Assembly: GCA_050486505.1 (NCBI GenBank)
Contig: JBJHDK010000004.1
Location: forward strand, 2,548-66,547
DNA length: 64,000 nt
Direction of reading: 5' to 3'
Source of the DNA: Fibrobacteria bacterium
GTDB lineage: Bacteria > Fibrobacterota > Fibrobacteria > UBA11236
Positions 22,129-51,242 of the stretch are shown here, one piece after another; the stretch's first letter is position 1, and every line of letters starts with the position of its first letter. Position numbers and translations under genes: made by a program. The notes under the pieces were generated by a model, which saw only the letters and a list, made by a program, of their open reading frames with translations, was not told the DNA's origin and searched no databases.

Positions 22129-22947
22129 CTACTCGTCGTCGAAAACCGCCGGATCGTAGTGCCCGAGCGAAAAGAATTTTTTCTGGTCGGGCATCTCGCG
22201 AAAGCTGGCGCGGAACTCCTTCGGGGTCATCTTCTTGTACTTCGCGAACTGCTTGGTAAAGAAGCTGTGATCATAGAAGCCGGCCTCCACGGCAATATCC
22301 GCAATGGGCTTGCTCGTGCCAACCAACAGGCGACACGCCACATTCAACCGAACCATGGCCAGGTAGCGCCCGGGCGTCACCTGGAACTCGCGCTTGAAAC
22401 GTCGTGTGAAACGTGAAAGGCTGAGCCCCGCCAACTCCGCGAGTTCTTCGGTGCGCAGCGGTTTGGCATAATGCGCCATGATATGCCTGACAACGGGCTC
22501 CAAGGTGCGGTAGGGGTGCAAGTCCGAATCCGCTGAACGCAAATCCTGCGTGATTCCGATCAGGCCGGCGGCATTGCCGTGCCTCCCCCTGAGGGGGATT
22601 TTTGTGGTCTGATACCAGTCCACCATGCCGTCCGCGGTGGGAATGATCTCGGGTTTGTTGATTTGCGGCACACCCGTGCGCATGACCTCGGCATCATCGT
22701 GACGGTATGCCTCCGCCTGCAACTTCCAGAAGAAATCGTAATCCGTCTTGCCGACGATTTCTTCCGGGCCGTTGAGCCCCATTTTTTCCCAATGGTTGCG
22801 GTTCGACATGATGAACCGGCTCTGCGAGTCCTTGATGAAGATGTGGATGTTGCTGGGGAAATAGTTGAGCAACTTTTCGATCAACTCATCCTCGGGGAGT
22901 TCCCCCAGAAATGCGCGACGGAACTCCTGATGGTCTGCACGTGTCAT
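22129..22947 (-). CDS. PAS domain-containing AraC-family transcriptional regulator (paralog 1)
   Basis: N-terminal PAS-like region (…FIKDSQSRFIMSNRNHWEKMGLNGPEEIVGKTDYDFFW…) and C-terminal AraC helix-turn-helix (…AGFYDHSFFTKQFAKYKKMTPKEFR…). 272 aa. Confidence 0.8.
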   Translation of the reverse strand: MTRADHQEFRRAFLGELPEDELIEKLLNYFPSNIHIFIKDSQSRFIMSNRNHWEKMGLNGPEEIVGKTDYDFFWKLQAEAYRHDDAEVMRTGVPQINKPEIIPTADGMVDWYQTTKIPLRGRHGNAAGLIGITQDLRSADSDLHPYRTLEPVVRHIMAHYAKPLRTEELAELAGLSLSRFTRRFKREFQVTPGRYLAMVRLNVACRLLVGTSKPIADIAVEAGFYDHSFFTKQFAKYKKMTPKEFRASFREMPDQKKFFSLGHYDPAVFDDE

Positions 22948-23819
22948 GGGGTTGCCTTTCTCCGCGACGGAGTCCCGCGGACACCGGCCGATAGTTCGGC
23001 GCTTTCCCTGGCCGAACTCCGCGGCGTCAGATCTCCGAGCGGGAAAAATTTCTTGCGGTCGGGAAGGTCGCGAAACCGGATGCGAAACTCCTTGGGCGTG
23101 AGGCCCTTGTACTTCAGGAACTGTTTGGTGAAAAAACTGTGGTCGTAAAAGCCCGCCTTCAGTGCGACTTCAGAAATCGGCGAAGTGGTGTCAAGCAGCA
23201 GCCTGCATGCTGCATTCAGTCTGACCATGGAAAGGTAGCGGCCCGGTGTCACCCCGAACTCCTGCTTGAAGCGACGGATCAGGTAGCCAGGGCTCAACCC
23301 GGCAACATCGGCCATTTCTTCGAGCCGGAGCGGCTTCGCGTAGTTCGTCATGATGTGGCGAACCACGGGTTCAAGGGTGCGGTAGGCCGACAACGCCGAA
23401 TCCGCGGAGCGCAGGTCGCGGATGATGCCCACAAGACCCTCGATCCCTCCATCCTTGCCGCGCAGGGGGATTTTGGTCGTCTGGTACCAATCCACCATGC
23501 CGTCCGCGGTGGGAATGATCTCGGGCTTGTTGATTTGCGGAGTCCCGGTCCGAAGAACCTCGCCATCGTCATGGCGGTAGGCTTCTGCCTGCAATGACCA
23601 AAAAAAATCATAGTCGGTCTTGCCGATAATCTGCTCCCCGCCCTCCAGGCCCATCTTTGTCCAGAAGCTGCGATTCGCCATCATGAAGCGGCCTTGCGCA
23701 TCCTTGACGAATACATCGACATTATCAGGAAAATGCTCCATGATTCTCTCGGTGATCTCGTTCTCGCGAAGCCTGTCGAGAAACGCGTGCCGAAGATCCT
23801 CCTCGCGACCAAGCGCCAT
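22944..23819 (-). CDS. PAS domain-containing AraC-family transcriptional regulator (paralog 2)
   Basis: Start at ATG 23819 (MALGREEDLRHAF…). It shows high identity to paralog 1 across the PAS and helix-turn-helix regions and carries an extra C-terminal tail. Its stop overlaps the paralog-1 start as ATGA. Confidence 0.8.
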   Translation of the reverse strand: MALGREEDLRHAFLDRLRENEITERIMEHFPDNVDVFVKDAQGRFMMANRSFWTKMGLEGGEQIIGKTDYDFFWSLQAEAYRHDDGEVLRTGTPQINKPEIIPTADGMVDWYQTTKIPLRGKDGGIEGLVGIIRDLRSADSALSAYRTLEPVVRHIMTNYAKPLRLEEMADVAGLSPGYLIRRFKQEFGVTPGRYLSMVRLNAACRLLLDTTSPISEVALKAGFYDHSFFTKQFLKYKGLTPKEFRIRFRDLPDRKKFFPLGDLTPRSSARESAELSAGVRGTPSRRKATP

Positions 23820-23821
23820 GC

Positions 23822-23950
23822 ATCCCCTCCGAAGTACGACTGTCGAAATGATACCAATGTTATGGCGAGCGAGACCCGTAAGTGAGCGAGAATTTCCACG
23901 TGGGCGGCGCGACACCGGTTAAATTCCCTCGTCCCGCAACCGGACGCGAC
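23822..23950 (+). promoter_or_regulatory. Possible degenerate FMN riboswitch (RFN element) in the ribD leader (needs a covariance-model check)
   Basis: The leader contains GCGAGCG, CCGGTTAAATTCC and AACCGGACG, which resemble the conserved RFN blocks (AGCCCGCGAGCG; CCGGUGNAAUUCCGG; AGUCCGGAUG), and its position in front of ribD is the classic one. Overall the match is partial. Confidence 0.25.
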
Positions 23951-23952
23951 TC

Positions 23953-25065
23953 ATGGATACTCGAACACACCACTCGCGACAGGCACTACGCCACATGGAT
24001 GCGGCCTTCGCCGAAGCGTTGGCCGCCAAGGGGCGGACCCTGCCCAACCCGGCGGTGGGCGCAGTGCTGGTCAGGAACGGCCGCGTCGTGGGGCGCGGCG
24101 GGACGCGGCCGGCAGGACAGGCGCACGCCGAAATCGTCGCGTTGGAGCAGGCTCGCGGCGAAGCGCGAGGAGCCACCCTGTACGTGACGCTCGAGCCCTG
24201 CCGGCACTTCGGCAGAACACCGCCCTGCACCCGCGCCATCATCGACGCCGGTGTGACGAGGGTCGTGGCCGCCTGCACCGACCCCAACCCCAAGGTCGCC
24301 GGAAATGGGCTTGCGGATTTGCGGCGCGCCGGCATCGAGGTCGAATGCGGACTGATGCGCGAGCGCGCCGAAACCTTCTACGCGGGCTTCTTCTTCTGGA
24401 TCCGGAACGGGCGCCCACGCATCGTCGTCAAGGTCGCGCAAAGCCTCGACGGGCGCATCAATGCGCGACCGGGCACGGAAACCCCGCTCACCGGCCTTGA
24501 GGCGCACCACTTCGCACATGCCCTCCGCGCGAGCGCCGATGCGATCCTCATCGGGGGTACAACCCTGCGCAGCGACAACCCGGACCTGACCCCGCGGCTT
24601 GTTCCCGGTGCGCCGGCGCCGGATGTGTTGGTCCTCACGCGCGACCGGATCCCAAGTCCCCGTCACAAGGTCTTCGCCCGCAACCGTCCGTCCCGAACCG
24701 TCGTGATTTCACCGGATCCCCCCCTTAACCTGCCTGCCCACGTGGATCTGGTCCGCATCCCCGGCAAAAGACCGCTTGTGCGGGAACTCCTGAACGTCTT
24801 CGCCGATCGCGGGTACCACGAGATTCTTGTGGAGGGGGGGCGTGCGGTGTGGTCTCCTTTCCTGAACGGGGGACTCTGCGACGCGCTGCATCTCGTCACG
24901 GCGCCGGCGCTCCATCCGGGAGGGGAACGCTGGGATGAAGGTCTTCGGGCAGGATGGGTGAAACCCCTTGAATTTCATAGATTTACGCCGCTTGGCCCTG
25001 ATGTTTGGGCCGAATTTCGACGGCGACCGGCCACCGCAACCGCGCGGAGGAGAACCGCGCCTTGA
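23953..25065 (+). CDS. ribD: Bifunctional riboflavin biosynthesis protein RibD (deaminase/reductase)
   Basis: CMP/dCMP deaminase zinc motif (HAEIVAL…TLEPCRHFGRTPPC) followed by a RibD_C reductase domain. The start is possibly the ATG at 23995. Confidence 0.9.
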   Translation: MDTRTHHSRQALRHMDAAFAEALAAKGRTLPNPAVGAVLVRNGRVVGRGGTRPAGQAHAEIVALEQARGEARGATLYVTLEPCRHFGRTPPCTRAIIDAGVTRVVAACTDPNPKVAGNGLADLRRAGIEVECGLMRERAETFYAGFFFWIRNGRPRIVVKVAQSLDGRINARPGTETPLTGLEAHHFAHALRASADAILIGGTTLRSDNPDLTPRLVPGAPAPDVLVLTRDRIPSPRHKVFARNRPSRTVVISPDPPLNLPAHVDLVRIPGKRPLVRELLNVFADRGYHEILVEGGRAVWSPFLNGGLCDALHLVTAPALHPGGERWDEGLRAGWVKPLEFHRFTPLGPDVWAEFRRRPATATARRRTAP

Positions 25066-25095: not shown

Positions 25096-25755
25096 ATGTT
25101 TACAGGGATCGTGCAGGAAACCGGTCGTGTCCGCGGGCTCTCTCCCCTTGGCGGAGCCGTGCGCTTTACGATTTCCGCTCCCGGGCTTTCCTCGCGGCTT
25201 GCCGTCGGTGACAGCGTTGCCTGCGACGGTGTCTGCCTGACGGTGGAGCGACTGGAGCGCGACGGATTCACCGTCTGCGCCGTGCCGGAAACGCTCGCGC
25301 GAACGACGTTGGGCCACCTGGCCATGGGCTCGGCGTTGAACCTGGAGTCCGCGTTGACTCCCACGACGCCGATGGGCGGGCATTTCGTCCATGGTCACGT
25401 CGACGGCACATGCGAAGTGATCGAAATCCGCCCCTTGGGCGACGGGGAGGGGCGTGAAGTCACCGTGCGCCTGCCCGGGCCGTTCGCGCGTTACTGCGTG
25501 TACAAAGGCTCGATCTGTTTATCGGGCGTAAGCCTCACGATCGCCGCCGTGGAGGGGAGCTCCGTGCGAGTGGCCCTGATCCCGCACACGCTCTCCGCCA
25601 CCACCTTGGGCAATGCAACGGTGGGGGACCTCCTGAACTTCGAAGTCGACATCCTGGCGAAATACGTGGAGCGTCTCGCGGGACGGGGCACGGGCTCGCA
25701 GCAGGCGTCGCTTGATGAGGCGGCGCTCAGGAAGTGGGGTTATGAAGTTTCATAG
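25096..25755 (+). CDS. ribE: Riboflavin synthase (alpha subunit)
   Basis: MFTGIVQETGRV… with duplicated lumazine-binding halves (…DGVCLTV…, …SICLSGVSLT…). 219 aa. Confidence 0.9.
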   Translation: MFTGIVQETGRVRGLSPLGGAVRFTISAPGLSSRLAVGDSVACDGVCLTVERLERDGFTVCAVPETLARTTLGHLAMGSALNLESALTPTTPMGGHFVHGHVDGTCEVIEIRPLGDGEGREVTVRLPGPFARYCVYKGSICLSGVSLTIAAVEGSSVRVALIPHTLSATTLGNATVGDLLNFEVDILAKYVERLAGRGTGSQQASLDEAALRKWGYEVS

Positions 25756-26920
25756 CATCGCCGAGGCGATTTCGGACCTGAGGCGCGGACGATCCATCGT
25801 GGTGGTGGACGACAAAAACCGCGAGAACGAAGGCGACGTCGTCTTCGCTGCGTCCAAATCGACGCCCGCAAAAATCAATTTTCTCGCGAAGCACGCGCGC
25901 GGCCTGGTGTGCGTGGCGCTTTCGGCGGATCGCGTCGAGGCCCTCGGCCTGCCTCCGATGACCGACCAGAACCGGTCTCGCTACGACACGGCATTTACCG
26001 TGTCCGTCGAAGCGCGCGAGGGCACGACCACGGGAATTTCGGCTTCCGATCGCAGCCTCACCGCACGCTTGCTGGCCGACGAGTCCTCGGGTCCGCGCGA
26101 CTTCATCAGCCCCGGCCATGTGTTTCCAATCAAGGCGCGGCGCGGTGGCGTGCTCGTGCGTGCGGGCCATACCGAGGCCGCCGTGGATCTGGTGCAAATG
26201 GCCGGGCTCGGAAACGCCGGGGTGATCTGCGAGATCATGAAAGAGGACGGGTCCATGGCCCGGCTTCCGGATTGCGCCCGATTTGCGCGCAAGCACGGAC
26301 TGAAAATCATTTCAGTGGAAGACTTGATCCACTACCGCCACATGCGCGAAAAACAGGTGCGCGCCGCCGGTTCCTTCCGTTTGCCCACTCCGCATGGGGA
26401 GTTCGAGGCGCACGCCTTCGAAGATCTTGTTCACGGTCGCATGCATTTGGCCCTCGTGCGCGGAGAGTTGTCCCAGACGCGCGCCGTCCCCGTGCGCGTG
26501 CATTCGGAATGCGCGCTCGGCGACGTGTTCGGGTCCCGGCGGTGCGACTGCGCCGACCTGCTGCAGCAGGGGCTCCGTGCCATTGCCCGGGAAGGCGGCG
26601 TCTTCCTATATATGCGCCAAACCCATTCCGAGGAGGCCTTCGGCCGCACCCTGCAAAAGTACGCCGCCGAGGACGCCCAACCGCGCTCCCGGGAAGCGAA
26701 GGGACGTTCCCAACACGGGGCCCCCATGGACGCCAGAACCTACGGCATCGGCGCGCAAATCCTCTTCGAGTTGGGGATCCGCCGCCTCAGCCTGCTGACC
26801 AACCATCCCAAGCGCATCCAGGGTCTTGAGGGTTACGGCCTCACCATCGTGAGGCAGGCGCCCCTGAGGGACGTAAAACCGGTCCGAACCCCGCGAGTCC
26901 GAAGCAAGGAGACAACATGA
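25742..26920 (+). CDS. ribBA: Bifunctional 3,4-dihydroxy-2-butanone-4-phosphate synthase / GTP cyclohydrolase II
   Basis: Start at ATG 25742 ([10 protein letters not shown]…). DHBP synthase motif ([12 protein letters not shown]) is followed by GTP cyclohydrolase II (…[20 protein letters not shown]…). Confidence 0.9.
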
Positions 26921-27378
26921 ACATCCTCGAAGGCAATCTCAACGCGAACGGAAAATCCTTCGGGATCGTCGTGTCCCGATTCAACACCCTTGTCACGCAA
27001 GAACTGCTCAAGGGTGCGGTCGACTGCCTCGTCCGCCACGGGGCCCGGGAGAAGGATATCACGGTGGCCTGGGTTCCCGGAGCCGGCGAGATCCCGCAAG
27101 TGCTCAGGCGTTTCGCCGCATCGGGCAAGTTCGACGCGGTCATCGCGTTGGGTTGTGTGATTCGCGGCGCCACGCCTCACTTCGACCAGGTCGTGCAGAC
27201 CGCCGTGAAGGGGTTCGGTGGCGTCGCGGACGTCGGCGTCCCCGCCACCTTCGGGGTTCTCACCACCGAGAACCTGGAACAGGCGCTGGAACGGGCAGGC
27301 TCCAAGGCCGGGAACAAGGGCTGGGATGCCGCACTGGCGGCCATCGAACTGACCTCGCTTTGGAGCAAGCTGCCGTGA
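26917..27378 (+). CDS. ribH: 6,7-dimethyl-8-ribityllumazine synthase
   Basis: [23 protein letters not shown]…, the canonical lumazine synthase start. It overlaps ribBA by 4 nt. Confidence 0.9.
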
Positions 27379-27809
27379 TCTCGCGCCGCAAGGGCAGAGA
27401 ATTCGCCATGCAGGCGCTGTATGCGTCCGAAGTCGGGGCAGAGACCCTCGACAAGGCTGCGGAAACCCTCATGCAGGACGATCCCGTTTCTCCCGACATG
27501 CGCGACTACGGCATGCGATTGTGCCGCGTCGTGCGCACCCGCGCCGACGAGATCGACGCTCTCATCGCAGCCTGCGCCGAACGTTGGGATGTCGCGCGCA
27601 TCGCCGTGGTGGACCGCATCATTCTACGCATCTCCGTGGCAGAACTCATGACCGAGCCCGATGTTCCCGCGAAGGTCTGCATCAACGAGGCGGTGGAAAT
27701 CGCCAGAAAGTTCTCAACCGAAAACAGCAGCCGCTTCGTGAACGGCGTCCTTGACGCCGTTTCCCGCAAGCTGGCTGATCTTCACAACGAACCCGCTCCG
27801 AAAAAGTAA
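27375..27809 (+). CDS. nusB: Transcription antitermination factor NusB
   Basis: GTG start at 27375, overlapping the ribH stop (GTGA). The N-terminus [19 protein letters not shown] is the conserved NusB start. The conserved ribH-nusB linkage is preserved. Confidence 0.83.
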
Positions 27810-27818
27810 GGAAGACGC

Positions 27819-30623
27819 ATGCTCAACGAAAAAAAGTTGGACGTCATTCTGGCGCTGACTGTATTCTTCGCCGCATTCTTCGTGTACCTGTCCACGATGG
27901 CACCCACAGTCTCCTGGTGGGACACCGGGGAATGGATCGCCTCGTCGTATGTCCTGGGAAACCCCCACCCCCCGGGGAATCCCCTTTTCACCTTGTTGGG
28001 ACGCGCCTTCGTCGTCGCCATGCCCATCTGGGAGAAAGCGGCGCGGATCAACTTCATCTCCGTGCTTACGATGGCCTTGAGCGCGATGGTCGCCTTCCTG
28101 TTCATCCTGAAGGCGATGCGCCTCATTTTCAACAAGGGAGGACTCAACCGCTTCGCCCTGTATTCGGGCGCCGTCATCGGTGGTTTCCTGGTCGCATTCT
28201 CCGACACGGTCTGGTTCAGCGCGGTGGAAACCGCCGCGTACAGCCCGGCGATGCTGATCGTGATGCTCACTGGCCTCCTGAGCCTGCATTGGTACGCGCG
28301 GCGCGGCACCCCGGCCGCTGACCGGCTTCTCCTTCTCATCGCCTATATCGGCTTTCTGGGCGTCGGCGTGCACATCTTCGCGTTCATCACCATCCCCGTG
28401 ATCGCGCTGTTCGTGCTCCTCGACAAGGAGTCCCGGTCCAACATCCCGCTCATCCTTGCGGGCGTGCTGCTGCTGTCCGTCATTTACGACATCGGCAACT
28501 TCGTCTTCTACGCCGCCGCCTCCCTCGCATTCTGCGTCACGGGGTATCTGGTTGCCCGTGCTCCCGAATGGCGTCGGCGCTGGTCGCTCGCGGGCTGGCT
28601 GAGCCTTGCCGCCATTCTCGGGTTCTCCACCTACATCTATGCCCCGGTCCGTTCCCACACCAATGTGTTGATCGACGAGGGCGCCCCCCGCACATGGCCC
28701 CTGCTGAAGGAGTACCTGGAACGCAAGCAGTACGGTTCCGAATCGATGCTGCGGCGAGCCTTCCATCGCCGCGCCCAGATCGGCCACCAGATCCTGATCC
28801 ACCCCCACATGGGCTACGGGGGCTATATGCTCTCGCAATACTTCCCCTGGAAGGTTGGCGATCGCAGCGAGGAAACCGTGGTCACCACCCGGAACCTCCT
28901 CGGCAAGGAGCTTGTCTTCCCGGAGCTGTACCGCTCGCTGCAGGGGCGAACCGGAACCCAAATCGGGCTTTTCCTGCTTCTGCAGATCCCCTTCATCTGG
29001 GGAGTCCTGCTCGCTTACCGCCGCAACCGAAAAATCGGCGCGTTCATCGGCGCGCTGTACGTCGCGACCAGTTACGGCCTCATCTTCTACCTCAACTTCG
29101 CGGATGGCACGCGCATGGAACTGCGCGACTACCAGTGGTGGAAGAGCACGGGATTCGACCCGAACCAGCAACCTCCCCCGGTTCACATGGAGGTGCGCGA
29201 ACGCGATTACTTCTTCACGCCCGGGTTCATGTACATGGGCATCCTGTTCGGCGTTTCGGCTGTCTTCCTGCTGAACTGGATCGCCTCCCGGCGCAGGTTG
29301 CTGCTGCGCCCGGCCGGCTTTGCCCTGATCGGCCTGGCCTTCGCTCTTCCCGTGTGGTCGAACTACCGTGAGCACGACCGCTCCCGCGACTTCGTGCCTT
29401 ACGACTACGCCTACAACCTGCTGAACTCCTGCCGTCCGAACTCGATCCTGTTCACCAACGGAGACAACGACACGTTCCCGCTCTGGTTCATGCAGCAGGT
29501 CGAGGGGATCCGTACCGACGTGCGCGTCGTGAACCTCTCGCTGGTGAACACCACCTGGTACATGCACCAGCTTTACGAGCACGAGCCGAAACTGAAAATC
29601 GGATTCACGCCCGAGGAGATCGAGAACCTCCGTCCGCAGCCGTGGCGCTTCCGCGGTCCGGTCGAGATCACGATTCCCGGAACGCAGATCCGCTACCAAC
29701 TGGACCCCCTCCCTTACCTTCGCGTTCAGGACATCATGGTGCTGCACATCGTGCAAAACAACTTCCCCGAGCGCCCTGTTCACTTCGCCGTCACCATCGG
29801 CGGCAACAACGCGATGGGCCTTGAGAGATTCACGGTCATGGAAGGCATGGTGTATACCCTCGTCGAAGAGCCGCGCGATCGAGAAATCGACGTCGTCGCC
29901 ACCGCCCGCCTCGTGGACTCTGTCTACCAGTTCCGCGGTCTCGGCGATCCCCGCGTGCACATCGACAAGACCACCGAGGGCTTGCTGACCAACTACTCCG
30001 CGACCAACTTCAGGCTGGCGGGGTGGGCACAGGACAGCCTCGAGAAAGTGATGCGGGAGCTGGAGCGCCTGCGCGGCCGCGATGGTCTGGGACGTGCCGA
30101 AACGGAGCGTCTTGCCGTCCTCGAAGAATCCCGCGAAGAAATGCTGGCCTTCGCCGAGCGCTACCTCGGGCTGAATGCGCGCATCCTCCCGGGTGAATGG
30201 CGCGTCCACTACTACCTGGGCCAGCTTTACCATCTCGCGGGCGAGCCCGGGAAGGCGGAATCGGCCTTCCGCGACGGCATGCGGACCCGCGGACCCGCGG
30301 CGAAGATTTTCGCCCTCAACCTGATGCAGCTCTTCATGGATGCCGGGCGAAGCGACGAGGCCAAGGCCGTGCTTTCCGAAATGACGGTGCGTTTTCCCGA
30401 GGATCTTGAAGTCGCATACCGTCTCGCGGAGATGTACCAGCAGGAAGGCGACTTCACCCGCGCGCGCGACATTCTTTCGAGATGGCTGCGGGCGAATCCC
30501 AATCACGAGTACGCGCGGCCCATCGAACAGCAGCTCCGCCAGCTGGAGTCGATGCCGCAGCGGGAGCTCCCGCCTCCGTCGCACGAGATCGAGGCTGAGA
30601 TTCCCGGCCTCCTTCCGGAGTAA
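27819..30623 (+). CDS. DUF2723 (TMEM260/TMTC-like, GT-C fold) polytopic membrane protein with C-terminal TPR repeats; putative lipid-linked-sugar-dependent (protein) glycosyltransferase
   Basis: 934-aa protein. The N-terminal 500-550 aa carry at least 10 TM helices and the DUF2723 hallmark VSWWDTGEW near the first loop. The C-terminal 300 aa form a TPR array (…YYLGQLYHLAGEPGKAESAFRDGM…AYRLAEMYQQEGDFTRARDIL…). It starts 9 nt after nusB. Confidence 0.75.
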   Translation: MLNEKKLDVILALTVFFAAFFVYLSTMAPTVSWWDTGEWIASSYVLGNPHPPGNPLFTLLGRAFVVAMPIWEKAARINFISVLTMALSAMVAFLFILKAMRLIFNKGGLNRFALYSGAVIGGFLVAFSDTVWFSAVETAAYSPAMLIVMLTGLLSLHWYARRGTPAADRLLLLIAYIGFLGVGVHIFAFITIPVIALFVLLDKESRSNIPLILAGVLLLSVIYDIGNFVFYAAASLAFCVTGYLVARAPEWRRRWSLAGWLSLAAILGFSTYIYAPVRSHTNVLIDEGAPRTWPLLKEYLERKQYGSESMLRRAFHRRAQIGHQILIHPHMGYGGYMLSQYFPWKVGDRSEETVVTTRNLLGKELVFPELYRSLQGRTGTQIGLFLLLQIPFIWGVLLAYRRNRKIGAFIGALYVATSYGLIFYLNFADGTRMELRDYQWWKSTGFDPNQQPPPVHMEVRERDYFFTPGFMYMGILFGVSAVFLLNWIASRRRLLLRPAGFALIGLAFALPVWSNYREHDRSRDFVPYDYAYNLLNSCRPNSILFTNGDNDTFPLWFMQQVEGIRTDVRVVNLSLVNTTWYMHQLYEHEPKLKIGFTPEEIENLRPQPWRFRGPVEITIPGTQIRYQLDPLPYLRVQDIMVLHIVQNNFPERPVHFAVTIGGNNAMGLERFTVMEGMVYTLVEEPRDREIDVVATARLVDSVYQFRGLGDPRVHIDKTTEGLLTNYSATNFRLAGWAQDSLEKVMRELERLRGRDGLGRAETERLAVLEESREEMLAFAERYLGLNARILPGEWRVHYYLGQLYHLAGEPGKAESAFRDGMRTRGPAAKIFALNLMQLFMDAGRSDEAKAVLSEMTVRFPEDLEVAYRLAEMYQQEGDFTRARDILSRWLRANPNHEYARPIEQQLRQLESMPQRELPPPSHEIEAEIPGLLPE

Positions 30624-31762
30624 TGCCCGTGCCGGAGGGGGCAACGCGTCCGCGCGTGCTGATCGTCAACTGGAGGGATATCCGCAACCCCGCGGCGGGC
30701 GGGGCGGAGGTTCACCTCCACGAGACGGCGCGCAGGCTCGTGCACAACGGCTTTGACGTCGTGCAATATGCGCACGCCTTCCCCGGCGGATCCGCCGAAG
30801 ACAATGTCGACGGCGTGGAAATCCACCGGAAGGGGAACGCGTTCCTCTTCAATTACACCGCCCTGCTCAATCTGCGCCGATGGGTGCGCCGCCACCGCAT
30901 CGATGTCGTGATCGACGACTCGAACAAGGTTTGTTTCCTGCTCCCGTTGGTTTCGCCGGTTCCGGTCGTGGCGCGCTTCCATCATCTTTTCGGACGTTCC
31001 ATTTTCCGGGAAGCCGGGTTTTTCCCCGCCCTGTACGTCTATCTCTTCGAGTGCATGATCGGCCCCGTGTATCGACGCACCCGCATCCTGACGGTATCGC
31101 CCAGTACACGCGCCGAATTGGAAGCCAAGGGCCTGCGGCGCATCACGATCGCGCTCAACGGCGTCGACCGCTCCGTGTACCGCGTGATTCCCGGAGCGGA
31201 GAAGATCCCTTTTCGCATCGTCCACATTGGGCGCATCAAGCGCTACAAGAAGCTCGACACCCTTCTTCACGCGCTGGTGCATGTGCGGCACGAGTTCCCG
31301 CAGGCGCATCTGGTGGTCGGAGGCGGGGGGAACGACCTCCCCGCGCTGCGCAGGCTTGCGCTCTCGCTCGGAATCGGGGATGCGGTCGATTTCCGGGGGT
31401 TCGTTTCCGAGGAAGAAAAGGTGCGGCTTTACAACGAGGCCCAGGTGTTCGTGAACGCCTCCCTGAAGGAGGGCTGGGGCCTGACGTCCGTCGAAGCCAA
31501 CGCCTGCGGGACACCCGTGGTCGCCACCGACGCGCCCGGTTTGCGCGACAGCGTGCGCCACGACGTGACCGGCCTGCTCGTGCCTCCCGATTCCCCGGAC
31601 AAGTTCGCTGCCGCAATCGTCAGCCTCCTCCGCGACCCGGAGCGGCTCTCGCGCATGCGGGAAGCGGCCATGGAGTGGGCTGCCGCGCACGATTGGGACC
31701 GCGCCGCCGGGGTTACGCGCGACGTCCTGCTTGAGGCGGTTTCCGGGAGATCCGCGCCATGA
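30623..31762 (+). CDS. Glycosyltransferase family 4 (GT-B, retaining)
   Basis: 379-aa protein with the GT4/EX7E-type C-terminal motif (…KEGWGLTSVEANACGTPVVATD…). Its start codon overlaps the upstream stop. Confidence 0.83.
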   Translation: MPVPEGATRPRVLIVNWRDIRNPAAGGAEVHLHETARRLVHNGFDVVQYAHAFPGGSAEDNVDGVEIHRKGNAFLFNYTALLNLRRWVRRHRIDVVIDDSNKVCFLLPLVSPVPVVARFHHLFGRSIFREAGFFPALYVYLFECMIGPVYRRTRILTVSPSTRAELEAKGLRRITIALNGVDRSVYRVIPGAEKIPFRIVHIGRIKRYKKLDTLLHALVHVRHEFPQAHLVVGGGGNDLPALRRLALSLGIGDAVDFRGFVSEEEKVRLYNEAQVFVNASLKEGWGLTSVEANACGTPVVATDAPGLRDSVRHDVTGLLVPPDSPDKFAAAIVSLLRDPERLSRMREAAMEWAAAHDWDRAAGVTRDVLLEAVSGRSAP

Positions 31763-32802
31763 CCACCGAAACCCCGAAGGAAGGCATGAAGCCGGAAGGG
31801 CGCCCCCCCGTCCCGGGCCGCTTCTGGTTCTGGACACGCGTCCTTGCCGTCATCGGCATCCTGTGGTGGGTGGTCGAGCGCAACGGCGGCGCACGCATCG
31901 CCCACGCGCTTCTCTCTGCTGATCCGCGTTGGGTCGCGGCGGCGGCGGCGGTCTTCTTTCTGTCGATCGTCCTCGCTGCCTGGCAATGGAGCCTGCTTCT
32001 GCGCATCCAGGGCATCCGTTTCGGATTCAAGGCATGTTTCAGGTCTTATTACTCGGGAATGTTCCTCAACAATTTTCTTCCCGGCACCGTCGGGGGAGAC
32101 GCCCTGCGCGTTTGGGACGTACATCGCCACGAAACTTCGCTGGGACGCGCCGCCGCTTCGACCCTGCTTGACCGCCTGATGGGTTTCAGTGCGCTGTCGT
32201 TCTTCTCCCTGATCGCGCTCGCCATCGAATTTCATCGGCAAGATCTCCCGCAGGGGTTGCTGGTGCACTTGTTGCAGGCGGTTGGGGCCGTTGCCGTCGC
32301 CTTTCTGTTTCTTCTTTTGCTGCTGCTCAGCAGGAGATTTTCGGGGGGACTCCACGCGATCATCCGTGCCCTCGGGTTGCAGCGACTCGGCAACATCCAC
32401 GCCAAGGTGCAAGATGCACTGATGGCCTACAAGGCTCGCTGGGGAAGCATCGGCATCGTCTTCCTGGTCGCCTGCACCGTCCAGCTGCTGCGAATCTCCG
32501 TGCACGCCTTTTGCGCCATGGCGCTCGGGCTTTCGCTCGCACCGGTGTTTTTCTTTTCGTTCATCCCCTTGATCGCGCTGACTGCCGTGCTCCCCTTGAA
32601 CGTGGGCGGTTGGGGCGTCCCGCAGGGGCTCGGCGCCTACCTTTACTCCCTGCCCGGAATCCTGGCCGTGTCGACGCTCGACCCGCGCGCCGCTGCGGCG
32701 GCGCTCGCCTTCCTTCCCACCGCCATCGGCATGGTGGTGATGCTCGGCGGGGGTATTTACCTTGTCTTCCGTCCCTCACAACCATCCCGGAAGGCCATGT
32801 GA
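31759..32802 (+). CDS. Flippase-like membrane protein, lysylphosphatidylglycerol-synthase TM-region family (UPF0104)
   Basis: 347-aa polytopic protein with the family's signature segment (…SYYSGMFLNNFLPGTVGGDALRVWD…). It overlaps the upstream GT4 gene by 4 nt. Confidence 0.72.
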   Translation: MTTETPKEGMKPEGRPPVPGRFWFWTRVLAVIGILWWVVERNGGARIAHALLSADPRWVAAAAAVFFLSIVLAAWQWSLLLRIQGIRFGFKACFRSYYSGMFLNNFLPGTVGGDALRVWDVHRHETSLGRAAASTLLDRLMGFSALSFFSLIALAIEFHRQDLPQGLLVHLLQAVGAVAVAFLFLLLLLLSRRFSGGLHAIIRALGLQRLGNIHAKVQDALMAYKARWGSIGIVFLVACTVQLLRISVHAFCAMALGLSLAPVFFFSFIPLIALTAVLPLNVGGWGVPQGLGAYLYSLPGILAVSTLDPRAAAAALAFLPTAIGMVVMLGGGIYLVFRPSQPSRKAM

Positions 32803-33752
32803 CGCGACTCAGTCTTGTTCTTCCCGCCTTCAACGAAGCGGAGAGCCTCCCCATCCTCCTGGAGGAGATCCGCTCGGTGTGCGAATCGGAGGGCATCGCC
32901 TACGAAGCCATCATCGTCGACGACGGCAGCACGGACGGCACCTTCGAGCGCGCCACCGAGGCCGCCTCCCGCGACTCGCGCGTCCATGCCGTGCGCTTCC
33001 GGCGCAACAGCGGCAAGGCGGCGGCGCTTGCCGAAGGGTTCCGGCGCGCGCAGGGCGAGTACGTCATCACCATGGACGCCGACCTGCAGGACAACCCGTC
33101 GGAAATTCCGGAACTGATCCGAATGCTGGAAGCCGGCTCCGACATGGTTTCAGGCTGGAAGAAAGTACGCCACGATCCCTGGCACAAGACTTTGCCCTCG
33201 AAGCTGTTCAACGCGGTCACGGCCATGGCTTCGGGCCTGCCCCTGCACGACTTCAATTGCGGGCTCAAGGCCTATCGCCGCGAGGTGGTGGAAAGCATCG
33301 AGCTCTACGGCGAGTTTCACCGGTACATCCCCGTGCTTGCACACTGGGACGGGTTCCGTGTCGAGGAGAAAGTCGTCGAGCATCGGGCACGGCGTTACGG
33401 AAACTCCAAATACGGTTGGGCGCGCCTGAGCAACGGATTGTTCGACCTGATCACCCTGCTCTTTCTTCACCGCTACACGCGCCGCCCGCTGCACCTGTTC
33501 GGCTTCGTCGGCATGTTGTTCACCGCGCTGGGGGTGGCGATTCTCGCCGGTTTCGGCATCAGCTGGCTCGCAACCGGAGCGCTGCACGTGCGGCCCCTGA
33601 TGCTCGGCGGCGTCGCCTTCATGCTGGTGGGCGTTCAATTCGTTTCGCTCGGACTGCTGGGGGAGCTGGTGAACCAGCGCTTCGCCGCGTCATCCCCCCC
33701 GCCCCCCGTCGCCCGCGAGACCCCTGGAGCGCCGCCGGCCCGGTCCCGATGA
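32799..33752 (+). CDS. GT2 polyprenol-phosphate glycosyltransferase (ArnC/GtrB/DPM1-like) with C-terminal TM anchor
   Basis: GTG start at 32799, overlapping the upstream stop (ATGTGA). The N-terminus VTRLSLVLPAFNEAESL…IIVDDGSTDGT…MDADLQDNP is followed by two C-terminal TM helices, as is typical of ArnC/GtrB. Confidence 0.83.
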   Translation: MTRLSLVLPAFNEAESLPILLEEIRSVCESEGIAYEAIIVDDGSTDGTFERATEAASRDSRVHAVRFRRNSGKAAALAEGFRRAQGEYVITMDADLQDNPSEIPELIRMLEAGSDMVSGWKKVRHDPWHKTLPSKLFNAVTAMASGLPLHDFNCGLKAYRREVVESIELYGEFHRYIPVLAHWDGFRVEEKVVEHRARRYGNSKYGWARLSNGLFDLITLLFLHRYTRRPLHLFGFVGMLFTALGVAILAGFGISWLATGALHVRPLMLGGVAFMLVGVQFVSLGLLGELVNQRFAASSPPPPVARETPGAPPARSR

Positions 33753-34591
33753 AAATCTTGGTCGCGGGCTGCAACGGCCTGCTCGGCCAGAACCTGCTCC
33801 GTTGCGCTCCGGCCGGGACGGAACTTCACGGACTGGCCCGGCATCCCGCGGCCCGGCTTCCGGGTCACCTGGCCTCCTTCCATTCCCGCGACATCACCGC
33901 CCCGGAAACATGGGACTTCGTTCGAGCGACGATCCGTCCCGAGCGGATCCTCAATGTCGCCGCGATCACCGATGTCGATGGCTGCGAACGTGCCCCTGTT
34001 GCATGTTCGCGCGTCAACCATGACGCCGTGAGCCTGATGACCGGAACGGGAATCCCGGTCGTGCAGCTTTCAACCGATTACGTGTTCGACGGAAGCTCCG
34101 GCCCCTACCGGGAGGAGGATGCAACGAATCCCCCCAATGCCTACGGCCGCATCAAGCTCGCCTCGGAGGCTCTTGCACTCGAGGGTTCTCCCGCCGGACT
34201 GGTGGTGCGCACCATGTGGGTTTGGGGCGAAGGAACGGGGACGAAGAAAAGCTTTCCGGCCTTTGTGGAGGAGACCTTGCGGGGTGGCGGCGTCGTGCGC
34301 GCCGTGACGGACCAGACCGGAAACCCGACGTGCGCGGAGGGCCTGGCGCGGGCGATCTGGGCCTTGGTGACGGGGGGGTGCTCCGGCGTCTATCACGTTG
34401 CGGGGAGCACTCTGCTGAGCCGCTTCGACTGGGCCCGGCACATCGCGGAATCGCGAGGGCTCGATGCATCCCGGATCGTTGCCGTAACCACGGCGGAGCT
34501 CGGACTCGCCGCACCACGGCCCTTGCGGTCGGGACTGGTCAGCGACAAGCTGTTCCGCGACACGGGGACCAGGTTGCAGGGCATCGAATAG
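33749..34591 (+). CDS. NAD(P)-dependent reductase, RmlD (dTDP-4-dehydrorhamnose reductase)-like
   Basis: MKILVAGCNGLLGQNL… Rossmann start and a STDYVFDG…Y…K catalytic-region pattern. ATG 33749 overlaps the upstream stop (ATGA). The track's 609-aa ORF is a frame fusion with the antisense strand and is rejected. Confidence 0.72.
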   Translation: MKILVAGCNGLLGQNLLRCAPAGTELHGLARHPAARLPGHLASFHSRDITAPETWDFVRATIRPERILNVAAITDVDGCERAPVACSRVNHDAVSLMTGTGIPVVQLSTDYVFDGSSGPYREEDATNPPNAYGRIKLASEALALEGSPAGLVVRTMWVWGEGTGTKKSFPAFVEETLRGGGVVRAVTDQTGNPTCAEGLARAIWALVTGGCSGVYHVAGSTLLSRFDWARHIAESRGLDASRIVAVTTAELGLAAPRPLRSGLVSDKLFRDTGTRLQGIE

Positions 34592-34690
34592 TCCCGTCGC
34601 CCCCAGTGCCCCCTGGCCGTCGCGGAATCGCGGACGATCCCCATCTTTCGCCTGCTATATTAGGCCCTCACGTCATCAGACCGGACTTCC

Positions 34691-35398
34691 ATGCCCAGAA
34701 CCCTCATCATCATCCCGACCTACAACGAGATCGAGAATCTCCCGCTGATGATTCCCGCTCTGGAGGCGCTTGACCTCGGACTCGAGGTTCTCGTCGTCGA
34801 CGATGGTTCGCCCGACGGCACCGGGGCCTGGGTCAGGGAGCAACAGGCCTCGAAGCCGCACCTGCACCTGATCGAGCGCTCCGGCAAACAGGGGCTCGGA
34901 TCCGCGTACGTCGCGGGGTTCAAATATGCGCTGGAGCGCGATTATGAACTCATCTTTGAAATGGACGCGGATTTCTCGCACGACCCGGCCTACATCAAGG
35001 ATTTTCTCGCTGCGATCCACGACGCGGACCTCGTCATCGGCAGCCGCTACATCAACGGCGTCAATGTCGTGAACTGGCCCATGAGCCGCCTGCTTCTGAG
35101 CTACTTCGCCAACATGTACGCACGGCTGGTGACCGGGCTTCCGGTCCGCGACGCCACGGGCGGATTCAAGTGCTTCCGCGCCGACGCCCTGCGCAAGCTC
35201 GACCTCGACCGCATCAGCTCGGGCGGCTACTCTTTCCAGATCGAAGTGAACTACAAGCTGTGGAAGAAGGGTTGCCGCATCCGCGAAATCCCCATCATCT
35301 TCAAGGACCGCACGTTGGGTGCCTCCAAAATGTCGGGGAAAATCATCAAGGAAGCCCTGTTCCTGCTGGTGAAGCTGCGCCTTGGCGGAGGAAAGTGA
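34691..35398 (+). CDS. Polyprenol monophospho-sugar synthase (dolichol-phosphate mannosyltransferase Dpm1-like, GT2), soluble form
   Basis: MPRTLIIIPTYNEIENL…VVDDGSPDGT…EMDADFSHDP…GGFKCFR. It aligns closely with Dpm1/Ppm1 catalytic domains. 235 aa with no TM segment. Confidence 0.85.
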   Translation: MPRTLIIIPTYNEIENLPLMIPALEALDLGLEVLVVDDGSPDGTGAWVREQQASKPHLHLIERSGKQGLGSAYVAGFKYALERDYELIFEMDADFSHDPAYIKDFLAAIHDADLVIGSRYINGVNVVNWPMSRLLLSYFANMYARLVTGLPVRDATGGFKCFRADALRKLDLDRISSGGYSFQIEVNYKLWKKGCRIREIPIIFKDRTLGASKMSGKIIKEALFLLVKLRLGGGK

Positions 35399-37137
35399 GG
35401 ACGGGGGACCAACCCTTCGACTCCACTTCGGTAAACTCAGTGCGATACCCCCAGGACAAGAGCCAGGATGCGGGAGACGAGGAGGGACAAGGAGCACCCC
35501 CAACCTCTTCCCCCCTGCCTACTGCCTACCCAAGGGGCGTCTCTGTCATCATCGTCTCCTACAACGTCCGCGAATTTCTTGATGCCTGCCTGCAGAGCAT
35601 CCGCCACGCTGCGGCGGGTTTCGACGGAAAAATCGAGGTCATCGTGTTCGACAACGACTCGCACGATGGCACTGTATCGCTGCTGCGGCCACGTTGGCCC
35701 GATGTCACCTGGATCGCTTCGGATCGCAACCTCGGCTTCGGATCAGGGTGCAACCGCGGTGCCGCAGTGGCCACGCAAGACCTGCTGCTGTTTCTCAACC
35801 CCGACACCTTGGTTCGCGAAGACACCTTCCGGGTCATGCGCGACTTTTTCTCGGGACGCGGCGACGTGGGGGCGGCCGGCTGCAAGATCGTGAACCGCGA
35901 CGGCAGCCTGCAGGCCGCAGCGAAGCGCAGTTTCCCCTCCCCGCGCGTAGCGGCCTACAAATTCATGGGCCTCGGCAGTCTTTTCCCGAAAAGCCGTGTT
36001 TTCGGCCGCTACAACCTGACCTATCTCGACGAGAACGAGACTCATGAGGTCGACGCGATCTCGGGTTCCTTCATGTGCATGCGCGCCGAAGTGTTCCGCA
36101 AGGCGGGAGGCTTTGACGAGGACTTTTTCATGTACGGGGAAGATCTGGACCTCTGCTTCCGGATCAAATTGTTGGGGCTGCGCAACTACTACCACCCGGC
36201 CACTCAGGTGGTCCACTTCAAGGGCGAGAGCGCGAAAAGCCGTCCCTTCCGGTCCTTCCTGTATTTCCACGAGGCCATGATCCTCTTCGCCCGCAAGCAT
36301 CTTGAACTGCACGCGCTGCCGGGATTCCTGCTGAATGCCGGCATCATCGTCCTGGCCGCGGCCAATTTCATCTCTTCGCGCTTCCGCAAGTGGAGCCGCT
36401 GGCTCGCCGATCTCGTCGTGGTCAACGGAGTGCTCGCTGCGACAGCCTACGCCTACCACAACATCCTCGACATCCGCCACGTCGCGACAGAGTACCCCGG
36501 CATGTATCTGCTGTCGCATTTACTCGTTTCCCTCGCGGTATTGCTTCCCTTCGCCTACATCGGCGAGTACGGCCGTCGCGTCGCACCTCCGCGCGCGGTT
36601 CTGTTCGCAGCCGCAGGCGGATTTCTTGCCTTCTTTTCCTTGAGCTACTTCCTCCACGAGCACGCCTATTCAAGGGTCGTCTTCGGAGTCACGGGTCTCC
36701 TGAGCGTCGCCCTGCTTTCGGGATGGCGCTGGGTTCGGTCGCACGGAGGCAAGCTTTTCCGAAAGCTCATGGACGGTTCCCGGCGCGTCGCCATTCTCGG
36801 AACCGGGGCGCGGGCCCTCGCGCTCGCGGAACTCATCCACTCGGATCGCGTGGAGGGTTATGAATGCGTCGGCTTCATCCATTTTCCAAAGGGCCCGGCG
36901 CCTCCCGAGGTGCGGGCAAGCGTGATCGGCGAAGTCGATTCCCTGCCGGGGTTGTCGAGAAAACTCGACCTCGCCGGAGTCATTGTTGCATTGGAGGGCG
37001 ACGCATACCCCGCGGCACTCGAAATCCTCGCGCAACAGGGCGCGCGAGCACTTGAGGTCAAGGTGCTGCTGGGGCCTCCGGAACCGGGGAAATTCAGCCT
37101 GATCGACCTTAATTTCGCGGATTCCCCGAAACAGTGA
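35395..37137 (+). CDS. Multidomain protein: N-terminal GT2 glycosyltransferase, central polytopic membrane domain, C-terminal CoA-binding-like domain
   Basis: Probable GTG start at 35395 with a GGAGG site 7 nt upstream, overlapping the Dpm1-like stop. GT2 core (VSVIIVSYNV…FDNDSHDGT…GFGSGCNRG…MYGEDLDLCFR) is followed by 5-6 TM helices, then a VAILGTGARALALAELI…ECVGFI…GV domain resembling the N-terminal CoA-binding/Rossmann domain of polysaccharide-biosynthesis sugar transferases. Confidence 0.65.
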   Translation: MRTGDQPFDSTSVNSVRYPQDKSQDAGDEEGQGAPPTSSPLPTAYPRGVSVIIVSYNVREFLDACLQSIRHAAAGFDGKIEVIVFDNDSHDGTVSLLRPRWPDVTWIASDRNLGFGSGCNRGAAVATQDLLLFLNPDTLVREDTFRVMRDFFSGRGDVGAAGCKIVNRDGSLQAAAKRSFPSPRVAAYKFMGLGSLFPKSRVFGRYNLTYLDENETHEVDAISGSFMCMRAEVFRKAGGFDEDFFMYGEDLDLCFRIKLLGLRNYYHPATQVVHFKGESAKSRPFRSFLYFHEAMILFARKHLELHALPGFLLNAGIIVLAAANFISSRFRKWSRWLADLVVVNGVLAATAYAYHNILDIRHVATEYPGMYLLSHLLVSLAVLLPFAYIGEYGRRVAPPRAVLFAAAGGFLAFFSLSYFLHEHAYSRVVFGVTGLLSVALLSGWRWVRSHGGKLFRKLMDGSRRVAILGTGARALALAELIHSDRVEGYECVGFIHFPKGPAPPEVRASVIGEVDSLPGLSRKLDLAGVIVALEGDAYPAALEILAQQGARALEVKVLLGPPEPGKFSLIDLNFADSPKQ

Positions 37138-37231: not shown

Positions 37232-38188
37232 ATGCCCGTACCCAAGGGGCCCCATCTCGAGTTCGAACAGCCGGTGGTCGAGCTGGCGATGAAAATCGAG
37301 GATCTCCTCAAGTCAGGTGAAGTGACAGGGTCCGATGTCAAGGCTCTCCAGGTCAAAAAGGAAGCCCTCCAGAAGAAAATCGCGGCGAAACTCTCGCCCT
37401 GGAACCGGATCGAACTGGCCCGGAGAGCGGGCCGCCCATTCACCCTGGATTACGTTCACAGCATCTTCGCCGACTTCGTCGAACTGCATGGCGATCGCCG
37501 CTTCGGGGATGACCCGGCCATGGTTTGCGGTCTCGCGCGCCTCGGTGAGCAAAGTGTCATGATCATCGGCCAGCAAAAGGGCCGCGACACCAAGGAAAGC
37601 ATCCGTCGCAACTTCGGCATGGCTCACCCCGAGGGATATCGCAAGGCCCTGCGCTGCATGAAGCTCGCGGAGAAATTCCGCATCCCGGTGATATCATTCA
37701 TCGACACTCCCGGGGCCTATCCCGGCCTCGGGGCGGAAGAACGAGGGCAGGGTGAGGCCATCGCCCTCAATCTCATGGAAATGGCCGTGCTTCGCGTCCC
37801 CATCATCGCCGTGGTCATCGGGGAAGGAGCCAGCGGGGGTGCACTCGGGATCGGCGTCGGTGACCGCCTGCTCATGCTTGAGAACGCATGGTACGGCGTC
37901 ATCTCTCCGGAATCGTGCAGCGCCATCCTTTGGGGCGACAGCAGCAAGAAACAGGAACTGAGCGGCACCATGAAAATCACTGCTGGGGACCTCAAGAACC
38001 TCAACGTGATCGATCGCATCATCCCCGAGCCCTTGGGCGGAGCCCACTGGGATCCCGATGCGATGTGCGGCACCTTGAAGCAAGTGCTCACGGAAGAGCT
38101 CTCTCTCCTGCGTGATGCCGACATCGAAGCTCTTGTTGAAAAGCGCGGAGCGAAATATGCCGCCATCGCCCAGTTCGCGGAGAAATAG
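37232..38188 (+). CDS. accA: Acetyl-CoA carboxylase carboxyltransferase subunit alpha
   Basis: Canonical AccA sequence (…LDFEQPVVELAMKIEDL…, …FIDTPGAYPGLGAEERGQGEAIA…). Confidence 0.93.
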   Translation: MPVPKGPHLEFEQPVVELAMKIEDLLKSGEVTGSDVKALQVKKEALQKKIAAKLSPWNRIELARRAGRPFTLDYVHSIFADFVELHGDRRFGDDPAMVCGLARLGEQSVMIIGQQKGRDTKESIRRNFGMAHPEGYRKALRCMKLAEKFRIPVISFIDTPGAYPGLGAEERGQGEAIALNLMEMAVLRVPIIAVVIGEGASGGALGIGVGDRLLMLENAWYGVISPESCSAILWGDSSKKQELSGTMKITAGDLKNLNVIDRIIPEPLGGAHWDPDAMCGTLKQVLTEELSLLRDADIEALVEKRGAKYAAIAQFAEK

Positions 38189-47038: not shown

Positions 47039-50251
<3,213 letters not shown>

Positions 50252-50388
50252 GTCACAAAGTTACAGAATCCATCCCGGTCCGCCCCGGAACCATCGCCGA
50301 CCGCAAAGGAAACCCCACGACTTCCGAACATTTCTCTACGACCCCGCGCTCTTGTACATTGCGCAAACTCTTCCGCAAAGGAGCTCTC

Positions 50389-51099: not shown

Positions 51100-51181
51100 G
51101 ACGGAAAACGGGAACGCTCGTCCGCCCGAAACCCCTCCACCGCATCGCTTCCGGAGAAAACCCCACCGCTCAAACGAAAAA

Positions 51182-51200
51182 GGGACGCTTACGCGTCCCG
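51182..51200. terminator. Bidirectional intrinsic terminator between the SIMPL gene and atpC
   Basis: aaaaaGGGACGCttacGCGTCCCgaattcattt. On the minus strand the hairpin is followed by tttttcgttt, so it terminates the atp operon. Confidence 0.5.
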
Positions 51201-51242
51201 AATTCATTTCCTTCGCTCTCCCCCCTTTGGGGGACTGGGGGG

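Follow-up and report, generated by a model that had tools for sequence, protein, structure and literature searches.

A TMEM260 (GT117) homologue and six further glycosylation genes downstream of nusB in a Fibrobacterota genome: a candidate system for periplasmic protein O-mannosylation

Protein O-mannosylation by glycosyltransferases (GT) of the GT-C type is known from eukaryotes and actinobacteria, and in actinobacteria protein O-glycosylation by a GT-C enzyme using a polyprenyl-phosphate sugar has been proven (Ppm1/Pmt, family GT39). The present analysis concerns a cluster of seven genes, here called G1 to G7, at positions 27,819 to 37,137 of a 64,000-nucleotide stretch of contig JBJHDK010000004.1 from a Fibrobacteria bacterium (assembly GCA_050486505.1); the whole 64-kb stretch is referred to as the window. 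The first gene of the cluster encodes a homologue of human TMEM260, the endoplasmic reticulum protein O-mannosyltransferase for IPT domains, which is classified in CAZy as GT117 (PMC10214176). In TMEM260 the residues D52, H67, Y267 and R355 engage mannose, R264 contacts the phosphate, and catalysis relies on D441 of the luminal Rossmann-like domain as the base; the alterations D52A, H67A, R264A, Y267A and D441A all kill activity and R355A lowers it (10.64898/2026.03.17.711096).

Protein O-glycosylation has also been proven in streptococci, for the GtrB/PgtC2 and PgfS-PgfE-PgfM1/M2 systems (10.1101/2024.05.05.592596; PMC5856776). In Bacteroidota a conserved core of hexose (mannose) and deoxyhexose is O-linked at D-(S/T)-x sites; the core enzymes, the core flippase and the transferase are undiscovered according to a 2025 review, which proposes that homologues of eukaryotic O-mannosylation be sought (PMC12871550). 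The paper reporting the discovery of TMEM260 mentions 'distant homologs in bacteria' and nothing further (PMC10214176), and it was the sole mention of DUF2723 in the literature searched. No study of a bacterial member of the GT117/TMEM260 family was found in that literature, in agreement with a preliminary description of this DNA, which stated that no bacterial system combining DUF2723 with tetratricopeptide repeats (TPR) was known to have been functionally described. On Fibrobacter glycoproteins the literature searched offered nothing usable.

All seven genes lie on the + strand, and their coordinates were verified in the window by open reading frame (ORF) and Pfam analysis:

27819-30623, + strand: G1, TMEM260-like (GT117) GT-C glycosyltransferase by homology, 934 aa (Pfam PF11028 and TPR)
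30623-31762, + strand: G2, soluble GT4 (GT-B fold), 379 aa (Pfam Glycos_transf_1, Glyco_transf_4)
31759-32802, + strand: G3, polytopic LPG_synthase_TM (MprF flippase-domain) protein, 347 aa (Pfam PF03706)
32799-33752, + strand: G4, predicted ArnC/GtrB-type GT2, 317 aa, GTG start (Pfam Glycos_transf_2)
33749-34591, + strand: G5, RmlD-like reductase, 280 aa (Pfam RmlD_sub_bind)
34691-35398, + strand: G6, soluble Dpm1/DPMS-like GT2, 235 aa (Pfam Glycos_transf_2)
35395-37137, + strand: G7, GT2 with membrane module and CoA_binding_3, 580 aa, GTG start (Pfam Glycos_transf_2, CoA_binding_3)

The cluster is proposed, with moderate confidence, to serve periplasmic protein O-glycosylation, most likely O-mannosylation, from a polyprenyl-phosphate-linked sugar. 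This function is favoured because G1 is a TMEM260 homologue that keeps the key residues and whose nearest solved folds are those of protein glycosyltransferases, because putative donor enzymes are encoded alongside it, and because export and polymerase genes are absent from the surroundings while the base composition is native. Also in favour of it, the genus Fibrobacter has a reduced cluster in which G1, G4, G6 and G7 are still linked, and there is precedent in streptococci and actinobacteria, where a polyprenyl-phosphate sugar used by a GT-C enzyme is a proven means of O-glycosylating proteins.

Profile and fold searches alike placed the 934-aa protein in the GT-C/DUF2723 family, as the preliminary description had suggested. 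The Pfam model PF11028 (TMEM260-like) matched G1 residues 35-205 with 128 bits against a cut-off of 24.2, and PF28495 (TMEM260_2) is precomputed on G1 homologues. The human TMEM260 structure, PDB 9rql, was matched with E 4e-17 by the single sequence and with 3.6e-29 by a 16-sequence profile, the match being split into two segments that span the GT-C core and reach into the luminal domain as far as its first part; the second HMMER segment places profile positions 385-599 on TMEM260 193-485. When TMEM260 residues 30-485, rebuilt from the 9rql search output, were aligned by hhalign with a profile of 86 bacterial relatives, a probability of 100% and an E-value of 3.5e-43 were obtained over 440 columns. 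In the profile alignment TMEM260 D52/H67/R264/Y267/R355/D441 correspond to G1 D35/H50/R302/Y305/R462/D549, and these six key residues are kept in 82-84 of the 86 relatives, which represent at least 12 lineages. Since 9rql lies outside the fold libraries searched, G1 and TMEM260 were compared by sequence and profile only, and on that basis G1 is a true TMEM260 homologue of the GT117/DUF2723 family of GT-C enzymes.

The AlphaFold2 (AF2) model of G1 (predicted local distance difference test, pLDDT, 79.8; predicted template modelling score, pTM, 0.77) shows the three-part plan of TMEM260: a GT-C fold, an alpha/beta domain outside the cytoplasm, and a TPR domain. The chain contains ~11-13 membrane helices. 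Its periplasmic alpha/beta domain, which is Rossmann-like, spans ~540-700; then come a helical linker and the TPR, with Pfam matches at 795-899 and the repeats placed at 795-911. The nearest solved folds to the model were yeast Pmt4 and Pmt2, followed by STT3B and PglB, all four of which glycosylate proteins. In the proposed pathway the membrane domain of G1 would bind the lipid-linked sugar and transfer it to Ser/Thr of extended segments in exported proteins. Its alpha/beta and TPR domains would bind these segments on the periplasmic side, and D549 would act as the general base in the way of TMEM260 D441. The G1 family comprises 2,748 clusters at 50% identity (E <= 1e-30). Fibrobacter homologues of G1 (L029:4089-7211, L032:9965-13087) have 1040 aa.

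The Pfam and NCBIfam searches upheld all seven domain assignments of the preliminary description, and the partner genes are taken here in the order in which they would act. G6 is a candidate polyprenyl-phosphate mannose synthase: its best PDB match was the Pyrococcus dolichyl-phosphate-mannose (Dol-P-Man) synthase 5mlz with E 2.4e-31, versus 1.8e-10 for ArnC, and its identity across phyla is 55-76%. It would convert GDP-mannose to polyprenyl-phosphate-beta-mannose on the cytoplasmic face of the membrane. G4 carries C-terminal membrane segments (236-290) behind a Pfam Glycos_transf_2 domain, scores 203 bits against the NCBIfam ArnC model (equivalog cut-off 529) and 140 bits against PgfS, both under the equivalog cut-offs, and matches ArnC (E 1.6e-54) and GtrB sll0501 (E 2.7e-31) in the PDB. 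It is predicted to be a polyprenyl-phosphate glycosyltransferase of the ArnC/GtrB type and would make a second polyprenyl-phosphate monosaccharide. The lipid-linked sugar would then be flipped, and G3 is the sole flippase candidate within the cluster, a role that may be guessed at family level from Pfam PF03706 (129 bits), NCBIfam TIGR00374 'flippase-like domain' (72.5 bits, above cut-off) and ~7 hydrophobic segments; no solved relative of G3 was found by sequence in the PDB.

Further sugars, possibly including a deoxyhexose, would probably be supplied or added on a lipid-linked intermediate by G5, G7 and G2. G5 has 191 bits for Pfam RmlD_sub_bind, 196.4 bits for NCBIfam rmlD (under the equivalog cut-off of 224.05), intact GxxGxxG and YxxxK motifs, and dTDP-4-dehydrorhamnose reductases as top PDB matches; it is RmlD-like and a predicted NAD(P)H-dependent 4-keto-6-deoxyhexose reductase. 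G2 matches Pfam Glycos_transf_1 with 142 bits, and also Glyco_transf_4, and has no hydrophobic segments; the GT4 of this type is the most frequent neighbour of GT117 genes across phyla (24/80 loci). In G7 a GT2 domain of GT-A fold (~46-330) is joined to four membrane helices, and the C-terminal part is a CoA_binding_3 domain of Rossmann-like type. The preliminary description had called G7 a 'CoA-binding' fusion, and the domain is there; the region is better read as the N-terminal membrane and Rossmann-like module of WbaP/WcaJ-type phosphoglycosyltransferases, residues 338-558 matching positions 2-221 of 445 in TIGR03025, which is the N-terminal half of these enzymes. No catalytic Bac_transf domain was detected in G7 by Pfam or NCBIfam, and its AF2 model (pLDDT 76.9) gave only generic GT-A enzymes as Foldseek matches. 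As judged from these domain matches, G7 is a glycosyltransferase whose scaffold once belonged to an enzyme of polyprenyl-phosphate, and it probably acts on a lipid-linked acceptor. Its homologues in other lineages, at 37-42% identity, retain the C-terminal half of Bac_transf; such proteins have 656-731 aa (P0333-P0360; L025:10417-12495; L016:10315-12405), and with GT2, CoA_binding_3 and half of Bac_transf they may be a degenerate or an unusual bifunctional enzyme.

The cluster follows directly on the riboflavin genes and nusB, and is bounded downstream by accA:

23953-25065, + strand: ribD (Pfam RibD_C and deaminase)
25096-25755, + strand: ribE (Pfam Lum_binding)
25712-26920 (ORF), + strand: ribBA (Pfam DHBP_synthase and GTP_cyclohydro2)
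26917-27378, + strand: ribH (Pfam DMRL_synthase)
27375-27809, + strand: nusB, 144 aa, GTG start (Pfam NusB, 119 bits)
37232-38188, + strand: accA, the downstream boundary (Pfam ACCA, 444 bits)

The TAA stop of nusB is followed after 9 nt by the ATG of G1, and the ribH stop is overlapped by the GTG start of nusB (GTGA). Five of the six internal junctions are overlaps (G1/G2 TAATG, G2/G3 ATGA, G3/G4 GTGA, G4/G5 ATGA and G6/G7 GTGA), the only internal gap being the 99 nt between G5 and G6, and G7 is spaced 94 nt from accA. This agrees with the seven co-directional genes, mostly coupled by overlaps, that had been described from coordinates and junction sequences at the outset. Upstream, ribD and ribE are ~30 nt apart by their ORF coordinates, and the other junctions from ribD to G5 for which the sequence was printed are overlaps or the 9-nt spacer at nusB/G1; ribD-E-BA-H is the upstream part of the same close-packed array. 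A consensus scan gave no terminator- or promoter-like site in the nusB/G1, G5/G6 and G7/accA gaps, a result of little weight in a phylum such as Fibrobacterota. A long antisense ORF at 27714-30644 was rejected as a high-GC artefact, the coding pattern of GC at third codon positions (GC3) belonging to G1.

Conservation of this arrangement was surveyed by scanning one genome per species and keeping the 80 best loci, with partners counted when on the same strand and within 10 kb; the counts are lower bounds, many contigs being short. The closest relatives of G1, with up to 79% identity, are encoded in metagenome-assembled genomes (MAGs) of Fibrobacterota. At 56% identity, a relative on a 3.75-Mb contig (L082) shows ribD-E-BA-H, nusB, a 10-nt spacer, G1-G7, a DUF6515 gene and accA. 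The homologues of G1 in the 80 loci come from Fibrobacterota, Zixibacteria, Latescibacterota, Eisenbacteria, Ignavibacteria, Chlorobi, Gemmatimonadota, KSB1, Calditrichota, Marinimicrobia, Cloacimonadota, Rhodothermales, Balneolales and Bacteroidota-labelled MAGs. Directly upstream of the G1 homologue nusB was found in 17 loci; a GT4 gene was present in 24, genes like G3, G4 and G6 in 13 each, G7-like genes in 10, and G5-like genes and accA in 7 each. The linkage to nusB occurs in five phylum-level groups (Fibrobacterota, Zixibacteria, Latescibacterota, Eisenbacteria and Ignavibacteria) and is therefore an old synteny and no local fusion. In the preliminary description the linkage of nusB to a DUF2723 gene had been called odd; instead it is conserved across several phyla, and the comparison of gene neighbourhoods suggested there gave the same order at 56% identity, with the core kept across phyla. 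The order G5-G6-G7-accA also recurs in other phyla. In the genus Fibrobacter the cluster is reduced to nusB-G1-G4-G6-G7, and since only these four genes of the seven are kept there, G1, G4, G6 and G7 are taken as the core and G2, G3 and G5 as accessory.

Several variations on this arrangement were observed among the loci. Behind the reduced Fibrobacter cluster stand genes for a large TPR protein and for a PilT-like one, labels that were read from N-terminal sequences only. Tandem pairs of GT117/DUF2723 genes occur in L014 (9998-12679 and 12743-15391), L019 and L025, which stem from a Cytophagia-labelled MAG, KSB1 and an unlabelled MAG; such tandem genes would be in keeping with sugars being added in two consecutive periplasmic steps. 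In clusters outside Fibrobacterota, the GT117 gene is separated from the block of RmlD-like, Dpm1-like, G7 and accA genes by purE and by genes for a conserved DUF4837 lipoprotein and for a signal-peptide protein that carries no annotation (L033:15783-16829, L025:8030-9109, L014:16684-17841, L038:14997-15995, L048:13598-14629), and no homologues of these three were found in the window. An ORF of ~240 aa with a similar N-terminus stands between nusB and the glycosylation genes in L011:9164-9901, L007:5279-5824, L031:6296-7021 and L047:6306-7031, the first two being from Latescibacterota and an unlabelled MAG; Pfam identified the L011 ORF as a calcineurin-like metallophosphoesterase. One contig labelled 'uncultured Bifidobacteriales' (L002) has a Fibrobacterota-like GT117 gene with 50% identity to G1 and is probably mis-binned.

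A number of observations weigh against protein O-mannosylation as the function. Near the G1 homologue no partner gene was detected in 56 of the 80 loci. The stretch with R264/Y267 (G1 R302/Y305) was aligned by the profile only and missed by plain pairwise alignment, the R302/Y305 loop has low confidence in the AF2 model, and the Fibrobacter homologues of G1 lack a TPR match in Pfam. The family of G3 is known for flipping phospholipid and not polyprenol. In a simple one-sugar pathway G2, G4, G5 and G7 have no necessary place, and the partial Bac_transf domain of distant G7 homologues is a hint that the ancestral pathway may at some point have involved a diphosphate-linked oligosaccharide. The sugar specificity of GT2 and GT-C enzymes is not reliably readable from sequence, and the literature searched contained no experimental study of any bacterial GT117 member.

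The alternative that survives best is that the same machinery acts on a non-protein acceptor, so that a glycolipid, a lipoglycan, the lipopolysaccharide (LPS) core or lipid A, or a cell-wall glycan would receive mannose or another sugar from G1 in the periplasm. In the mycobacterial phosphatidylinositol mannoside/lipomannan (PIM/LM) pathway, cytoplasmic GT4 steps are followed by flipping and then by GT-C extension from polyprenyl-phosphate-mannose. A GT4 and a protein of a phospholipid-flippase family (G2, G3) beside a GT-C enzyme and a Ppm1-like synthase mirror PimA/PimB, PimE and Ppm1, and the closest match of G4 is ArnC, so that the PIM/LM pathway and ArnT/GtrC-type modification would be the closest models. 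The only characterised member of the GT-C family of G1 however acts on peptides, G1 keeps the luminal catalytic base (D549 = D441) as well as a peptide-binding TPR module, its top structural neighbours are protein glycosyltransferases, and ArnA/B/D and GT83 are absent. A non-protein acceptor is on this evidence unlikely. As for the Arn pathway of lipid A modification as such, it was rejected, only the ArnC-like G4 being present and ArnT (GT83), ArnA, ArnB and ArnD missing.

A second alternative shares the protein acceptor with the proposed O-mannosylation and differs in the mode of transfer: G1 would be an oligosaccharyltransferase, and a short glycan (e.g. hexose and deoxyhexose) would be built in the cytoplasm by G6/G7/G2/G5, flipped by G3 and moved en bloc. 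En bloc transfer is the published model for the Bacteroidota core glycan (PMC12871550). G7 is a GT2 on a polyprenol-binding scaffold from a phosphoglycosyltransferase, of which relatives keep part of the catalytic domain; the RmlD-like G5 lies close beside it; and for cytoplasmic GT4/GT2 enzymes to have a part in a periplasmic product, their acceptor must be lipid-linked. Against this, TMEM260 moves a single mannose and its mannose-contacting residues are all kept in G1, while the cluster contains no intact initiating phosphoglycosyltransferase; to our knowledge, the known GT-C enzymes with monophosphate donors transfer single sugars. Transfer of a preassembled glycan by G1 is thus considered quite improbable.

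An ordinary strain-variable locus for O-antigen, capsule or exopolysaccharide (EPS) that happens to sit after nusB, to which several glycosyltransferases, an RmlD-like gene and some database labels of G7 homologues ('O-antigen biosynthesis protein') might point, is effectively excluded, as no Wzx, Wzy, ABC transporter, Wza/Wzc or intact initiating transferase was found within ~15 kb on either side (the preliminary description had named nearby Wzx/Wzy or ABC export as the sign of such a locus), the GC content equals that of the flanks, and a gene order kept at 56% protein identity, with its core kept across phyla, is the opposite of a variable locus.

The cluster has a GC content of 0.61-0.66, equal to that of the flanks and the rest of the window. 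The window holds a nuo operon, a secDF fusion, two AraC-PAS regulators, ribDE(BA)H, nusB, the cluster and accA, and 3' of accA a TPR protein gene, accB, accC, argB, argC, recF, gyrB, an atp operon, parAB and lepA, and is origin-proximal housekeeping DNA. No Rfam family and no tRNA were found anywhere in the window, and the Rfam scan thus detected no FMN riboswitch in it. Two tandem AraC-type PAS regulators (22129-22947 and 22944-23915, both - strand) diverge from ribD at a distance of 37 nt. A NuoF-like gene at 12348-14297 (- strand, 649 aa) has Pfam matches that begin at residue 240 and may be a NuoE-NuoF fusion, and SecD and SecF are fused in one 877-aa protein (19404-22037, + strand). Between gyrB and the atp operon the ORFs 49385-50251 and 50227-51537, both on the - strand, are without Pfam match; GC3-based gene picking preferred the + strand ORF 50359-51099 over both, which leaves it doubtful whether they are coding.

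In the literature searched, no system of Gram-negative bacteria is based on the TMEM260 family. The family spans at least a dozen lineages of the Fibrobacterota-Chlorobiota-Bacteroidota (FCB) superphylum and retains all the catalytic residues known from the human disease enzyme. It offers a tractable bacterial model for the TMEM260 mechanism, and for Fibrobacterota and related bacteria it is a concrete candidate system by which envelope proteins may be glycosylated. Tentatively, GT117 and its partners may form a general protein O-mannosylation system of the FCB superphylum, whose Bacteroidota orthologues would be the sought core transferase and machinery for mannose and deoxyhexose, with tandem GT117 pairs adding the two core sugars successively in the periplasm. 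By this hypothesis the core enzymes still missing from Bacteroidota O-glycosylation, which matter in gut and oral bacteria, also have a candidate in the cluster.

Compared with Bacteroidota O-glycosylation, the host belongs to the same superphylum, and the cluster would offer a mannose-type protein transferase, a polyprenyl-phosphate-mannose synthase, a 6-deoxyhexose reductase and a flippase candidate, which is the set needed for a core of O-mannose and deoxyhexose. It differs in that the published model assumes en bloc transfer and that the host here is a member of Fibrobacterota, for which no such glycan is documented in the literature searched; a profile of the Bacteroidota-labelled G1 members led only to MAG proteins without informative names. 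The GtrA/GtrB/GtrC and ArnC/ArnE-F/ArnT systems are arranged like the cluster in that a GT2 polyprenyl-phosphate sugar synthase is combined with a flippase, here putative, and with a GT-C enzyme, G4 being nearest to ArnC. The acceptors of those systems are however O-antigen or lipid A, G1 is of neither the GT83 nor the GtrC type, and no small flippase of the GtrA or ArnE/F type (small multidrug resistance-like, SMR-like) was found among the seven genes or their neighbours, for which G3 is a possible and unproven substitute.

In the streptococcal systems a GtrB-type GT2 likewise makes an undecaprenyl-phosphate sugar, a GT-C enzyme puts the sugar on Ser/Thr outside the membrane, and the locus includes an enzyme that modifies sugar nucleotides, PgfE, of which G5 would be the counterpart here, G4 reaching 140 bits with the PgfS model; their GT-C enzyme is however of the YfhO family and not GT117, their hosts are Gram-positive and their sugars are Glc or GalNAc. 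The Pmt/POMT enzymes with Ppm1/Dpm1 of fungi and actinobacteria belong to a different GT family, GT39, with ~9% identity to G1 in structural alignment, and G1 lacks their MIR domains, its own acceptor-binding module being alpha/beta and TPR. With TMEM260 itself there is homology from the GT-C core into the first part of the luminal domain, agreement in the six tested residues, and a common plan of GT-C, alpha/beta and TPR, to which the presence of a Dol-P-Man-synthase-like gene within the G1 cluster is added. Unlike TMEM260, G1 is bacterial and periplasmic, has 934 aa versus ~707 aa with large insertions in the R302/Y305 loop, would use undecaprenyl-phosphate or another bacterial polyprenyl-phosphate as carrier, and is accompanied by six other glycosylation genes. 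The in silico evidence supports a pathway that is a bacterial variant of lipid-linked protein O-glycosylation, of which the logic is already known and the basis in the TMEM260 family is new.

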